Assembly: GCA_963827755.1 (NCBI GenBank)
Contig: CAWHCQ010000014.1
Location: 1-64,000, forward strand
Direction: 5' to 3'
Length of the DNA stretch: 64,000 nt
Source: an uncultured Gammaproteobacteria bacterium
GTDB lineage: Bacteria; Pseudomonadota; Gammaproteobacteria; UBA9214
The stretch's first letter is position 1, and each line of letters begins with the position of its first letter. This document shows positions 136-5,761 of the stretch, one piece after another. The position numbers and the translations under genes are program-made. The notes under the pieces were generated by a model that saw only the letters and a program-made list of their open reading frames with translations, was not told where the DNA came from and did no database searches.

Positions 136-1677
136 ATGCTTGAAGTGGCGATTGCCTCCGGTTCCCAGCTTGCTGCAGATGCAGGCGCACGCGTGGCACG
201 TGAAGGTGGAAATGCAGTTGATGCTGCCATCGCCGCGTCACTGGTTTCCTGCGTGGTCGAGCCAGGGGTCTGCTCGCTGGCTGCGAGTGGTTTTCTGACC
301 ATCTGGCCACCCGATGCCGCCCCGGTGATGGTGGACGGAGCCGCGGTCATGCCCGGCATGGAACTGCCGAAGAGCCGCTTCGGGCAAGCCACCGCGGAAG
401 TGTTGCTTGAGTATGGCGGTGGCGTGCGCACTACGGTGGGTTACGGCTCGGTGGCGGTTCCCGGTAATCTGGCCGCCTATGAACTAGCATCCGAGCGCTA
501 TGGTAATGTGCCATGGCGCGCGCTGATCGAACCTGCTTGGGAGATAGCGCGCGACGGCTTTCCCCTGTCGGAGGCTTCTTACCACTACCTGCAACTCACG
601 CACAAACCGATCTACGGCTGGAGCGAGCATGGTCTGGGGATATTTTGTGGTGCTGACGGCGAACTCTACAAGCCGGGCAGCACGATCCGCATTGAGCACC
701 TCGACGAAACCCTGCACAGCATAGCCGAGGACGGCGCGGATGTATTCTACCGCGGCGATCTGGCCGCACAGATCACTCGGTATATCGAGGCTCATGGCGG
801 CATTCTTACCCGTCAGGATATGGCAAGCTACAAGGCACGTCTGTTACCGACACTCGATGTGCAGGTGAATGACTGGACAGTGGCAACTGACTCACCGCCG
901 GCACTTGGTGGTGCGGTACTGGCGGCCATGCTGCTGCTGATGGGAGACCGACCTCAGGATATCTGGACGCCGGCAGAACTTGAATATCTGATTCGCGTCC
1001 AGGAGGCAGTGCTGAGCTTCCGCTACGACCACCTTGATGGCAGCGAGGACCTGCCGCGTGATGTACAGGACTTGCTCGAACAGGCTTCAGCGCAGGACTT
1101 ACGCCACTTTCTGTCATCGCCCTCGACCGTGCATGCCTCGGCCGTCGATTCTGCTGGCCTAGCCTGCTCGGTCACGGTGTCGGCGGGCTACGGGTCCGGG
1201 GTGATGCCACCGGGCACCGGCATCTTTATGAACAACAGCCTGGGTGAACTTGAATTGAACAGGCGCGGCCTGCATATGTGGGTTCCGGGCAGCCGCCTGC
1301 CATCCAATATGGCCCCGACCGTGGCACGCCACCGCGACGGCGGGGTGCTGGCTATCGGTTCACCCGGTGCCAGCCGTATTACAACGGCAATTCAGCAAAC
1401 CCTGCTTAATTTCATGCACCTGGGTGCACCACTGCAGGCGGCCGTGGATCATGCGCGGCTGCACGTAGAGGAAGCCGATGGTCATATGCAAGTCGCCTAC
1501 GAGGAGGCATTACCAGTGGATCAGCTGGATGTGCCGCAACGCATGTTTTCCGGCATCTCTATGTATTTTGGTGGCGTGAGTGCGGCGTTGTGGGACCCGC
1601 GGGAGGGCTTTGTTGTGGCTGCGGACCCGCGCCGTGCCGGGGGGACAGCATTCTCCGGCAAAGGGGGCTCTCGTTAG
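136..1677 (+). CDS. ggt: Gamma-glutamyltransferase (glutathione hydrolase-like, Ntn-hydrolase) family protein
   Basis: 513-aa ORF with GGNAVDAAIA, VVEP, SVAVPG, FYRG, catalytic Thr motif STVH, NNSLGE, SNMAPT, GSPGASRI and C-terminal ADPRRAG. No obvious signal peptide. Confidence 0.85.
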   Translation: MLEVAIASGSQLAADAGARVAREGGNAVDAAIAASLVSCVVEPGVCSLAASGFLTIWPPDAAPVMVDGAAVMPGMELPKSRFGQATAEVLLEYGGGVRTTVGYGSVAVPGNLAAYELASERYGNVPWRALIEPAWEIARDGFPLSEASYHYLQLTHKPIYGWSEHGLGIFCGADGELYKPGSTIRIEHLDETLHSIAEDGADVFYRGDLAAQITRYIEAHGGILTRQDMASYKARLLPTLDVQVNDWTVATDSPPALGGAVLAAMLLLMGDRPQDIWTPAELEYLIRVQEAVLSFRYDHLDGSEDLPRDVQDLLEQASAQDLRHFLSSPSTVHASAVDSAGLACSVTVSAGYGSGVMPPGTGIFMNNSLGELELNRRGLHMWVPGSRLPSNMAPTVARHRDGGVLAIGSPGASRITTAIQQTLLNFMHLGAPLQAAVDHARLHVEEADGHMQVAYEEALPVDQLDVPQRMFSGISMYFGGVSAALWDPREGFVVAADPRRAGGTAFSGKGGSR

Positions 1678-2492
1678 CCGCTTTAACGGAATTATAAAAC
1701 GAATGTCGTAGTTTGGCGTGCGCCGTGCAAAGGCGGCGTTTCTCAGTGGGTGCGAATCCCACCCGGCAATGTTGCTCCAGCCGGAAGCAATCGGAGCAGT
1801 CATGGAGGTAACGAAGTGGCTGAAGCCTCTGGTGTAGAGGGTCACTAGGTGACTTGGCGAGTGTGCAGGCCGTAACGTGAGTGAACGCTGAGCAATCCTC
1901 GAAAAGGACGTTGCACAGGCCGACCTGTCCGCCAATGCGGGGAAGGCTGATAGGACTGGGAGAAATGAGCAAGGCAGTGTCCCCAGTCACTGTGCCGGGG
2001 TAGTGGCGACAGCATGTACACAAGAGGGAAACGCACGCAACACGGGAAGCCCGATAGCGTGGTCGGTCGTGGCGACCAACCTGAGGCTGGTGACAGTCAG
2101 ATAGGGCGCTATGGGGTGGCGGAAAGGCCCGTAGTACCGGGGAAGCCGGGTAATGCCGGTGGAGGAAAGGGGCCTTAGTTCAAGACGGGCGCTGAAAGTG
2201 GCAAAGCACGGGAGATTGGGGCAACCCTAGGAAACTCCTGAAATGTGTGCAAGCGCTGCGGAAGGTGCCACATGCTGAAGCGAAGGAAGAACCCGGATTG
2301 CGATCCGGGAAGCGAATGACCACCCAGGTGGTGGCATTGGCGGTTATGTGCAGAACGCTCGGTCGATGTACGCCGGGGTACACGGCCCTGTGCTGTGGTC
2401 GGGTGAACTGCGTATGACCTTTCGTGTGCAAAGGCATGCTGTCTTGTCCGAGAGCCGGATGCGGGAAATCTGCATGTCCGGTTCGATGAGGA

Positions 2493-4428
2493 TTGCGCCT
2501 TGCAAGCGCATGAAATCCAGCAGCCTGAAATGGCTGCCCTGACAAAGCCTAGCCAGCAGTCAGGTACCGAGTCTTGCGTGGTGTCCGGTAACGGCCACTG
2601 CGAAGCGTAGACAGGGAGACTGTAGGCCGAAACGAAAGTGAACGGAAAGATAGCCCCGAAATCGAACGTGGTTGAAGTGGCCGACCTTATTCCTCTATGG
2701 GGAAGGCGGAATTCCAGGATACGCATTGGCGAGTGTTCTGGAGTGCTTCCGGGGTTCGTACCGTCGGCATGCAGTCGAGGGATTTCATGTGAACAAGGGA
2801 GATCCGTCAGGTTCAAGCGGAGCTTGTAGGGTCGGACAAGCTGACAAAGCGAGGAAGATCCGATGGCCTGACGGAAGTCAGACTGGCTGATAGTACTCTG
2901 AGGTCGGGAGAGCCGATCACATGGGGAAGCGGCCAGCAGAAGTTGAATCGTTCTTGGGCAACATGGGCTCCATTCAATGGGAGATTACGGCCCTCTATAC
3001 AAAGAGAGGATAAACCAGTCATGGAAACGGGACTTGAACGAATAGCAGCGAAAGCTCGGAGTGAACCAAAGCAGCGATTTACGTCATTGGCCCATCATGT
3101 CACGCGGGAGCGGGTGTGGGAGAATCTGTGTCAGATTTCAAACCACTCGGCCCCGGGTTGTGATGGCCAGACGGTAGTGGAGGCGAAGGAGGAGTTCGAC
3201 GTATGGATTGAGCCGATGCTTCAATCTGTGCACCGCCGGGGATATCAGGCACCGCCTATCCGGCGGGTCTACATTCCGAAGCCCGGCAAACAGGAGAAAC
3301 GTCCCTTGGGCGTGCCCTGTGTCACCGATCGGGCGCTCCAGCGCAGTACCGCTCAGGTGCTGTCCGCCATCTACGAGCAGGAGTTCTTGTCCTGTTCCTT
3401 TGGTGGTCGGCCCGGGTTAAGTGCCCATCATGCTTTGGCAACCCTGAATGAGGTGATTGCCGGGCGCAAGGTGGGCTGGGTGCTGGAGGCGGATCTGAAG
3501 AACTTCTTTGGCAGTTTAGATCATGGATGGCTACTGCGCTTTGTGGAACACCGAGTCGGAGATCCGCGCGTAATCAGCCTGATACGACGTTGGCTGAAGG
3601 CAGGTATTCTGGAAGATGGAGAATTGCATCCCAACGAAGAGGGGACGCCGCAAGGGGGTTCGATCAGCGTCTTGCTGAGCAACCTGTACCTGCACTATGT
3701 GCTTGACCTGTGGTTTGAGCAAGTGGTCAAGCCGCGTTTAAAGGGTGAGGCCTATTTGGTGCGGTATATTGATGACTTTGTGGTGTGTTTCCAATATCGG
3801 GCGGATGCCCTTCGCATGCAGAATGCCCTGCGCAAGCGACTGGGGAAGTTTGGACTGGAACTGGAACCGACGAAGACAAAACTCGTTGAATTTGGTCGCT
3901 TTGCTCAACGGCATGCGAGCAAGCGAGGGAGAAGGCGCCCGGAGACGATCTACTTTCTGGGTTTTACCCTCTATTGCACGCAAAACCGAAAGGGCAACTT
4001 CAAGGTGGGCTGCGCACCGAGAAGTCTCGGCTTCAGCGTAGCTTGCCAACCTGCGCGACCTGATGCGGCGAATGCGTCATCTGAAGCTTCAGGAACAGGT
4101 CATCAATCTGAACCGGGTCTTGCGTGGTCACTATGCCTACTATGGCATTGCCGGTAACCTGCGTGCCTTGCAGAAAGTGCATCGGTTCGTGATGCGTTAC
4201 TGGCGAAAGATGCTTAGCAGTCGAAGTCGCAAGGGTTATGTGACGTGGGAAGCTTTCCAGGGTATATCAGCGCGGTATCCGTTACAGCAACCAAAGCTGA
4301 GGCTTCCTTATCGGGAGTTTCAGTTACTTGCCGTGCTGTGAAGCAATCTCTGAAGAGCGTAGTGCCGGAAATCGGCACGCTACGTTCTGTGGGAGCCGGA
4401 AGCGGGTGACTGCTTCCGGCGACCCGGT
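2493..4428 (+). mobile_element. Inner group II intron encoding RT/maturase
   Basis: 5' end TTGCG at 2493. EBS1-like TCCTC (2691-2695) is complementary to upstream GAGGA (2488-2492). Domain V GAGCGTAGTGCCGGAAATCGGCACGCTACGTTC at ~4355-4387, then domain VI hairpin CCGGAAGC...GCTTCCGG, ending GACCCGGT at 4428. Confidence 0.85.
3021..4341 (+). CDS. ltrA: Group II intron reverse transcriptase/maturase, no endonuclease domain; frameshifted near 4010-4050
   Basis: Motifs APGCDG, RRVYIPKPGK, RPLGVP, DRALQ, SFGGRPG, ADLKNFF, GTPQGGSISVLLSNLYLH, RYIDD, FLGF. Domain X (LNRVLRGHYAYYG) continues in ORF 4063-4341. Two apparent 1-nt deletions separate the parts; these could be sequence errors or real inactivation. 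Confidence 0.9.
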
Positions 4429-4820
4429 GGATGTGGAAACGGAGTGATGGTTCGGCTATTGAGGCACCGCCAGACGAAAGGGGCGGCAACAGATAGGCTG
4501 AACCTTAGACCACCGCGCCACATCTTTACTCTACCGAAGGTACGCGTTTACTGTTTCAGTCAGCAACCAGGATTCAAGAGATCAGGAACGGCAAGTTTCT
4601 GCTCTAAACAGGACGTTTAGTCGAATCTAATATAAACAATCACTTAATGACAACTGTCGACCCAAATAAGAAGTTCAGCATCTTGAATTGTATGTCTGAG
4701 ATTGCGGCGAAAGCTGACGTTAGCAGAATGATAACGGACTGAGGGCTGGCAATCAGCGGGAATCGCGACGGGGGAGTCAGTGATGCAGCTGTGAGAATGC
4801 GCCCACGACGGCTGGGGGCG

Positions 4821-4886: not shown

Positions 4887-5035
4887 ACTGAAAAATGCCT
4901 ACCCATATTATCCCACTCTTGTTCAAAAGACGGGTACCGCCACACCAAAAGTAAGCGCTTTAGGCGAGCGCGTCTGTAGCAGTTGTTGTCGTTGGACTAG
5001 TATTTTTGCGCTAAATGGTTCACCATTGTTTCGAG

Positions 5036-5761
5036 ATGAGCATTCCAAATTTGTCAAAAACCATTTTAGCCCGAATTGGATTACTAGGCTGTTACACTTG
5101 CCCAATCTGCGGTGAAAGCGGTAGATTTGAAAAATTTTTGGGACGCGAACATGCACGCTGTTGGCACTGCGGCTCTCTTGAGCGCCACCGAGGCCAGTAC
5201 ATTGTGCTTCAGGAATGTTTGAAGAATTTTAGTCCCACAGATTCAGCGGCTATTCAGTTCGCGCCTGATGCGATGACGCCATTTCTTCGCCAGTACTTTC
5301 AAAATTTTAAGACCGCAGATCTTTATCGTGATGACGTTGACCTCAATCTTGATTTGAGGAGTTTGGCGCTTGATGATGAGTCCTATGACTTTTTGTTCGC
5401 CTCTCATGTTATGGAACACGTCGATGATGACATGGCGGCCCTCAATGAAATCTACAGGGTACTAAAGCCGGGCGGATTGGCTATATTAGCGGTTCCCTTT
5501 AGGTCAGGGAAAACTATCGAATACCCGGAGCCAGTTCCTACTGAACATTACCATGTGCGTATGCCAGGGATGGATTATTTTGATCGGTATAGAGAAGTAT
5601 TTGACGCAGTGACCTTGTATAGCTCTGACGACTTTCCAAATCGTATTCAGCCCTACGTATATGAAGACAGAACAGTGTTTCCTAGTGAGACCTCGCCCTA
5701 CCAACTGCCTGAGATAGGAAGCAAATTTCTTGAGATTGTGCCATGTTGCAGTAAACAATAG
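5036..5761 (+). CDS. Class I SAM-dependent methyltransferase-like protein with N-terminal Cys4 motif
   Basis: CPICG...CWHCGSLERHR, then FAPD, DLNLDLRSL, YDFLFASHVMEHVDDD, EIYRVLKPGG. More AT-rich than the flanking core genes. Start could be 5015 or 5036. Confidence 0.75.
   Translation: MSIPNLSKTILARIGLLGCYTCPICGESGRFEKFLGREHARCWHCGSLERHRGQYIVLQECLKNFSPTDSAAIQFAPDAMTPFLRQYFQNFKTADLYRDDVDLNLDLRSLALDDESYDFLFASHVMEHVDDDMAALNEIYRVLKPGGLAILAVPFRSGKTIEYPEPVPTEHYHVRMPGMDYFDRYREVFDAVTLYSSDDFPNRIQPYVYEDRTVFPSETSPYQLPEIGSKFLEIVPCCSKQ

Follow-up and report, generated by a model that had tools for sequence, protein, structure and literature searches.

A group II twintron in a gammaproteobacterial genome, with an inner-intron lineage that appears to home to the domain V/VI junction of other group II introns

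How does one group II intron come to lie inside the branch-point helix of another, and is the arrangement an accident of one locus or the habit of a lineage? The question is raised by positions 1718-4534 of a 64,000-nucleotide stretch of DNA from an uncultured gammaproteobacterium of the UBA9214 lineage (GenBank assembly GCA_963827755.1, contig CAWHCQ010000014.1, positions 1 to 64,000; hereafter the window). A preliminary description had read this segment as a twintron in which an intron encoding a reverse transcriptase (RT) is inserted in domain VI of an intron without an open reading frame (ORF). We are highly confident that the segment is a genuine group II twintron made by retrohoming, and that its inner member comes from a lineage that homes to the junction between domains V and VI of its hosts. 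Two separate group II ribozymes are present, each element lies where the preliminary description had placed it, and the ends proved exact.

At Rfam gathering thresholds the outer intron matches RF02003 (D1D4-4; 1744-1880, 103.8 bits against a gathering score of 49, over the full length of the model) and the inner intron matches RF02005 (D1D4-6; 2528-2762, 137.8 bits). All features of the twintron are on the plus strand. The 5' segment of the outer intron (1718-2492) begins with GTGCG and comprises domains I-IV, domain V (2452-2484, with an AGC triad, a GAAA loop and a two-base bulge, identified from the RF00029 match and the fold), the three-base linker GAT and the first five bases of domain VI, GAGGA (2488-2492). 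The inner intron fills the following 1936 bases (2493-4428), from TTGCGCC to ACCCGGT. Its domain V (4355-4387) and its domain VI (4391-4428, with A4422 bulged seven bases from the 3' end) were placed by alignment to RF00029, the match to which (4353-4428, 46.4 bits in a permissive scan, gathering score 40) ends on the last inner base. The rest of the outer domain VI, a long arm of 106 bases (4429-4534), starts with GGATGTGG (4429-4436), continues for about 80 more bases and closes with the 3' strand CCACATCTTT-A-CTC (4518-4531), followed by TAC ending at 4534. A4528, the branch point, is seven bases from 4534, after which comes the 3' splice site. The homology of nine loci to this tail stops at 4534, apart from a CG common to the 3' exons, which fixes the 3' end of the outer intron. 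At the other end, the outer exon-binding site 1 (EBS1), GCCAA at 1931-1935, pairs with the end of the 5' exon, TTGGC (1713-1717), and in a paralogue in the same genome (L003) ACCCA stands opposite a flank ending TGGGT. An outer EBS2 and its intron-binding site (IBS2) were sought for a conserved GAATGTC-like motif of the flank, for which no convincing partner was found.

The joining of 2492 to 4429, on which the twintron interpretation turns, exists in nature. In five loci of related genomes (L031, L021, L012, L014 and L009) the base equivalent to 2492 runs directly into that equivalent to 4429, the 106-base tail being 93-98% identical to that of the window, and the bases at both junctions permit no shift of the boundaries. 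The same target, GAGGA followed by GGATG, is unoccupied in L031, the filled counterpart of whose site is found in L036, with a similar 3' flank. In L021 the outer intron is present without the inner one, and because homology of its 3' flank to that of the window reaches 4602 we take it to be the orthologous locus.

The preliminary description had also claimed that removal of 2493-4428 rebuilds a domain VI with A4528 bulged, and this is borne out. When the excised form is folded, GAG pairs with CUC, A4528 is bulged, ten further pairs form as drawn and the long structured arm is closed; domain VI forms only once 2493-4428 has been removed. A comparison that amounts to Infernal before and after excision, which had been proposed as a check, gives 37.9 bits for RF00029 at 2450-2503 in the interrupted state (permissive scan, below the gathering score of 40), with a good domain V and a forced domain VI. 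Across 149 bases from domain V to the outer end, the natural empty sites score 45.6, 44.5, 43.5, 43.3 and 33.7 bits, the last of these in L009. The helix occurs in two variants, GAG-GAGGAUGUGG opposite CCACAUCU(U/C)U-A-CUC in the window and L031, and GAG-CGGGGUGUGG opposite CCACAUCUCG-A-CUC in L021, L012, L014 and L009. Two adjacent pairs are altered on both strands between the variants (G.U/A-U versus C-G/G-C), and these compensatory changes support the rebuilt outer domain VI helix. Comparing the window, with GAGGA, and hosts of a GAGCG variant, the host 5' strand, the host 3' strand and the EBS1 of the guest vary together.

If the inner lineage is specialized for such sites, its relatives should lie at comparable positions elsewhere. 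A scan of one genome per species, with the in-frame part of the RT as query, gave 327 relatives, of which the best 80 (80-97% protein identity) were analysed; they come from Terriglobia, Vicinamibacterales, Gamma-, Beta- and Alphaproteobacteria, Methylobacter, Mesorhizobium and others. Among these 80, 5' junctions could be placed in 68 loci (70 junctions) and 3' junctions in 75 loci (78 junctions), the copies all beginning with ttg[c/t]gcc and nearly all ending with cccggt. The 5' flanks of at least 46 bases were examined for a strictly defined domain V shape (two helices and a two-base bulge on the 3' side). A canonical domain V ends 6-10 bases before the insertion site in 43 of 65 flanks (33 of 54 distinct ones), compared with 6 of 2000 positions drawn at random from the same loci. 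In 33 of 48 distinct hosts the joined flanks, with five bases from before the site and the rest from after it, yield a domain VI (3-4 pairs, a bulge with an A in it and six or more pairs beyond), compared with 6 of 800 random positions. An initial hairpin test was rejected as unspecific, being passed by 52 of 65 flanks but also by 100 of 400 random positions. Cross-joined flanks of different loci were likewise rejected as a control: 208 of 935 pass, and since many hosts have common types of domain VI, cross-joining is a poor control.

The hosts are diverse. Ten loci were scanned with Rfam, which identified hosts of types D1D4-4 (L101, L075), D1D4-2 (L055), D1D4-3 with D1D4-1 (L095) and D1D4-6 (L071, L091), with a host domain V match directly before the site in five of the ten. 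The family also inserts in itself, its own domains V and VI forming the flanks in L096, L110 and L113; the inner domain VI of the window starts with GGGAG (4391-4395), one of the target types of the family. The same-genus but more distant relative in L040 and L033 (78-84% DNA identity) follows a different domain-V-like hairpin, has EBS1 CTCTC adapted to GGGAG, and has a 3' flank that completes a domain VI. That the homing site of the inner lineage is the domain V-domain VI junction of other group II introns, of several types and including its own kin, is thus a conclusion supported by comparison of flanks. Tabulation of further copies, which the preliminary description had suggested, found recurrent insertion at this junction rather than at unrelated sites in most testable flanks.

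Target recognition is indicated by the pairing between EBS1 and IBS1. The inner EBS1, TCCTC (2691-2695), is complementary to the IBS1 GAGGA (2488-2492). The preliminary description had called it EBS1-like and noted this match; it indeed lies in the loop homologous to EBS1, and it co-varies across the family with host bases -5 to -1. On GAGCG hosts the loop reads TGCTC or CGCTC. The closest relative, in L044 (97% protein and 95% DNA identity), has its 5' junction on the same host domain V as the window, occupies the GAGCG variant of that host and carries the EBS1 loop TGCTC. After removal of L046, in which the 5' part was misaligned, and of L103, L081 and L088, whose EBS1 columns contain gaps, pairing family-wide averages 4.78 of 5 positions and is complete in 40 of 50 distinct combinations; none of 5000 shuffles of the partners reached as high a value. 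Five compensatory types of host and EBS1 are found: GAGCG/CGCTC, GCGGG/CCCGC, GAGAG/CTCTC, GGGAG/CTCCC and GAGGA/TCCTC. A candidate EBS2, TCGAAC (2662-2667), is complementary to a candidate IBS2, GTTCGA (2481-2486), made up of the last four bases of the outer domain V and two linker bases. The first base of the 3' exon is G in 45 and C in 7 of 52 copies of the inner family, and a search of the first 320 intron bases for its EBS3 or delta partner found no co-varying column. Self-splicing and retromobility of the inner intron are predicted from the empty sites and the co-variation of EBS1 with IBS1.

The course of events that we consider most likely is as follows. An ORF-deleted member of an outer family common in the genus would have occupied the spacer after a gamma-glutamyltranspeptidase gene. 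A member of a widespread lineage whose intron-encoded protein (IEP) lacks an endonuclease domain, and which homes to the domain V/VI junction of other introns, would then have recognized it, the EBS1 loop pairing with the first five bases of the host domain VI and a second loop, EBS2, probably pairing with the conserved last bases of the host domain V. Insertion would have taken place eight bases past domain V, in the 5' strand of the branch-point helix. The guest interrupts this strand two bases above the position opposite the branch adenosine, so that a continuous outer domain VI exists only after guest excision, and the outer intron should regain a normal domain VI only once the inner one has spliced out. 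From this anatomy we infer ordered splicing, inner before outer. Such an order agrees with what is described for other twintrons (PMC4424553, PMC4649490): in Euglena gracilis, according to the account in one review, the inner intron often must leave before the outer can fold and splice (PMC4424553), and for the T.e.I7/T.e.I8 pair of Trichodesmium erythraeum sequential splicing is reported in vivo (Pfreundt and Hess 2015, PMC4649490). The outer intron may alternatively splice hydrolytically, without a branch.

Neither partner in the window retains an intact gene. In the outer intron only a remnant of an RT gene, the start codon and about 45 codons (2153-2293), is left, now with a stop. The alignment between the window and L009 runs to 2293 and resumes at 2423, and about 1.24 kb of the outer RT gene is deleted relative to ORF-containing relatives; between the corresponding points L009 carries an intact RT/maturase ORF of 464 amino acids. 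Judged by this alignment, the outer intron is an ORF-deletion derivative and not primitively ORF-less, so the earlier label describes its present state but not its origin. The inner IEP gene (3021-4341) encodes RT and maturase (X) domains and no endonuclease domain, with matches to PF00078 (RVT_1; 112.1 bits on 3021-4157) and, in another frame, to PF08388 (GIIM; 22.4 bits on 4063-4341, cut-off 23). In relatives the gene is open, with 448 amino acids in L033 and an open stretch of 451 codons in L101. The inner and outer family proteins are 30% identical.

Several observations weigh against the proposed reading, some of them concerning the activity of this particular copy. The inner IEP gene of the window is broken by two one-base deletions, near 4009 and at about 4045-4050, located by comparison with the intact 448-amino-acid relative in L033 and across three reading frames; the description of the inner intron as RT-encoding thus holds for the family and fails for the window copy. 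Contigs of all four sequencing runs compared carry an extra T after 4009, so the deletion near that position is private to the window copy or to its assembly. No second group II RT was found in the source assembly (92% complete) at E <= 1e-5. With the inner IEP broken and no other group II RT found, splicing in vivo may not occur here, and the twintron in this genome, its inner gene frameshifted twice and its outer gene lost, is probably a decaying fossil. Contigs with 2492 joined to 4429 come from one RNA-labelled run and also from two DNA runs, and the joint of the GAGCG variant likewise occurs in contigs of DNA runs and of one RNA-labelled run. We rejected these contigs as RNA evidence of splicing, because the same joints in DNA runs show that they represent empty DNA copies.

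Other difficulties concern the lineage as a whole. At all 70 5' junctions, in 68 loci, the intron begins with UUGCG (UUGUG in some relatives) and not with the usual GUGYG; since the empty sites fix the boundary, the non-G first base is a real deviation and no boundary error. GUGYG is given as the consensus 5' end in the review already cited, which also mentions altered intron termini (PMC4424553), and the UUGCG start may go with a changed contact between the first and penultimate bases. The fixation of a non-G first base across a widespread and evidently mobile lineage is unusual; nearly all copies end in GGU. Among the 5' flanks, 22 of 65 do not pass the strict test for domain V: roughly nine of them still visibly resemble a domain V apart from a mismatch, in four only the 3' strand remains, and some look unrelated, so that the lineage also lands at degenerate or other sites. 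The EBS2/IBS2 signal, finally, is weak (4.34 of 6 positions paired, versus 4.11); pairing is complete in only 6 of 50 combinations, and pairing as high as that observed arises in 1 of 5000 shuffles.

The alternative that survives best concerns what moves. The twintron might move and be inherited as one unit, with the guest RT as its only RT and the guest acting partly as a partner of ORF-less hosts; widespread, horizontally spreading "introns of introns" at the domain V/VI junction would then propagate as two-ribozyme, one-RT retroelements. We consider this possible but doubtful. In its favor, complete composites occur twice within one genome at different sites, with 99.9% identity over 3938 bases between L075 and L076 (4 differences) and 99.96% over 2613 bases between L071 and L073 (1 difference), and the identity does not extend past the outer ends. 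On a Methylobacter contig of 2.4 Mb (L101) the entire arrangement is found, aligned collinearly with the window for 2839 bases (76.7% identity), with the inner ORF open, and the parts have diverged alike (76.6% identity in the outer 5' part, 75.9% in the inner intron and 77.4% in the tail). Several of the scanned hosts (L101, L071, L091 and L055) lack the length for an ORF. The same picture would nevertheless arise if an empty host were duplicated and the guest then homed efficiently into the copies, an alternative also discussed by Mohr et al. for Thermosynechococcus elongatus (PMC2882425), and the outer family has its own, distinct IEP. In L037 the piece upstream of the inner 3' part is the start of the RT gene of the outer family, so that this locus derives by deletion from a twintron with an ORF still present in the host. 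Empty outer copies, moreover, far outnumber filled ones in sediment metagenome contigs: in runs X1, X2, X15 and X16, over window positions 1600-4700, the summed contig depth amounts to hundreds over the outer parts and to about 6-20 over the inner intron, so that empty hosts appear to be much commoner than filled ones in those communities. Binding of the guest protein to the host ribozyme finds no support in any observation made here. Should composites propagate in this manner, with the guest RT as the sole one available to ORF-less hosts, they would represent a step from hyperparasitism towards partnership.

A second alternative concerns how the site is read. The target might be recognized mainly as a DNA hairpin, domain V, together with a short IBS1, in the manner of class C (IIC) introns, with EBS2 pairing of minor importance. 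As portrayed in the same review, class C introns resemble the inner intron in having an IEP without an endonuclease, a small ribozyme, insertion a few bases past a stable hairpin and a short IBS1, but their targets are stem-loops of terminators or attC sites (PMC4424553), whereas the hairpin here is domain V of another intron and an EBS2-like loop is present. Consistent with hairpin recognition, most hosts have a strong hairpin at a fixed distance before the site, no endonuclease domain is present in the inner IEP, the ribozyme is small at about 615 bases apart from the ORF, and EBS2 is near-invariant (TCGAAC or TCGATC) while few combinations pair fully. The A/T difference within EBS2 nevertheless tends to track GTTC versus GATC in the host, at a level of pairing that shuffling rarely reproduces, and in L046, L051 and L122 the intron sits where only the 3' strand of domain V remains. 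Comparison of the inner IEP with solved RTs gives E values of about 1e-36 to 1e-32 for class C, IIA and IIB alike, does not discriminate among the classes and so leaves membership in class C unsupported. We judge it rather unlikely that the hairpin dominates, and prefer recognition by EBS1 together with a probable EBS2.

That the locus is a misassembly or two unrelated fragments side by side, or that 4429-4534 is a 3' extension of the inner intron next to a 5' fragment of an outer one, is very improbable: although the source is a 52-contig metagenome-assembled genome rich in intron fragments and no independent contig compared bridges either junction by at least 31 bases, the same junctions recur in other assemblies (the inner 3' part with the outer tail, and with differing 3' exons, in L036 and L037; the 5' junction in L044; the whole in L101), and the tail is continuous with domain V wherever the inner intron is absent and so belongs to the outer intron.

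Some inner introns of the Euglena gracilis chloroplast twintrons lie in domain V or VI of their hosts. In Methanosarcina acetivorans, homing is reportedly directed into the ORFs of related introns (this from the title of a 2003 paper by Dai and Zimmerly), as against the branch-point hairpin in the present case. The E. gracilis twintrons of Copertino and Hallick share with the window the placement of a group II intron within a structural domain of another; as the review summarizes them, they are organellar, degenerate, immobile and situated in essential genes, whereas here the twintron is bacterial and intergenic, from a mobile lineage with natural empty sites (PMC4424553). For M. acetivorans the review describes repeated site-specific homing into other group II introns, as is found here, with nests up to five deep in non-coding DNA that provide a perpetual homing site (PMC4424553). 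In the TeI3/TeI4 twintrons of T. elongatus the guest is ORF-less and lies in domain IV, between the first two ATGs of the RT gene of the host, host and guest being close relatives within one genome (Mohr, Ghanem and Lambowitz 2010, PMC2882425); the present guest encodes an RT, lies in domain VI and is found in several types of host in several phyla. For T. elongatus a pattern of identical inner copies in diverged hosts within one genome is reported. The inner family here resembles the intron-homing lineages of T. elongatus (F3) and M. acetivorans in that its members recurrently settle at one conserved position of other group II introns. The twintron T.e.I7/T.e.I8 of T. erythraeum is likewise bacterial and combines two distantly related RT-encoding introns, but its guest occupies domain I of the host, the twintron lies within a protein-coding gene and a single locus is involved, unlike a lineage with a dedicated target (PMC4649490). 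A twintron formed by a lineage specialized on the domain V/VI junction, at a position that differs from the published cases of intron homing compared here, is supported by these comparisons. The literature searched, on twintrons and intron-homing introns, yielded no bacterial lineage that homes to domain VI; the intron lists of Toro and Martinez-Abarca (2013) and the Zimmerly database lay outside its scope.

Three target strategies of bacterial introns are named in the 2015 review: homing sites, terminators and attC sites (Zimmerly and Semper, PMC4424553). The use of the end of domain V and the start of domain VI, the most conserved piece of an intron, as a landing pad would be a fourth and self-referential strategy. 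Such a target does the cell no harm, exists in many copies, moves between genomes itself and is re-formed by splicing of the guest, and the inner intron would behave as a parasite of parasites. Bacterial twintrons have been regarded as rare curiosities; the present family could serve as a natural system for learning how much disturbance of domain VI is tolerated before branching fails, whether an order is imposed by nested splicing and whether ORF-less introns survive by means of an RT-bearing guest. The arrangement would also explain why automatic intron finders that expect one pair of domains V and VI per element miss such loci or misplace their bounds.

Nesting goes further in some members of the family. 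At L113 1762-6348 three D1D4-6 ribozymes are nested, and near L120 1487 one family copy follows another in the same orientation, with the last bases of the first serving as the 5' flank of the second. Several copies from Terriglobia (L058 1645-2875 and L062 1061-2875, as well as L063, L064 and L067) contain an insert of 1.2-1.8 kb at the counterpart of window 2894/2895, in which Rfam gave no group II match. In L040 (minus strand, 660-1150, genome G011) the host hairpin adjoins the apparent end of an IS3-type transposase gene, as read from the translation.

The whole structure is intergenic. It starts 40 bases past the stop codon of the gamma-glutamyltranspeptidase gene (136-1677), and a methyltransferase gene (5015-5761) is its downstream neighbor. 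The source assembly totals 2.85 Mb, the window lying on contig 14, and the inner intron is single-copy in it. The outer family has matches in 21 of 36 other genomes of the genus, many of them fragments. Two more copies occur in the same genome, on contig 36 (L003 1501-1989, minus strand) and contig 35 (L004 1501-1593, minus strand), and end on the 3' side after 492 and 91 bases. Such 5' fragments are numerous across the genus, whereas incomplete reverse transcription predicts the opposite, truncation at the 5' end. The 83 bases directly 3' of the outer intron (4534-4616) recur on contig 36 of the same genome (L003 2810-2891) at 86.7% identity, in opposite orientation to the other outer-family fragment and roughly 800 bases away from it. 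They may be a duplicated target or a short repeat to which the intron is drawn.

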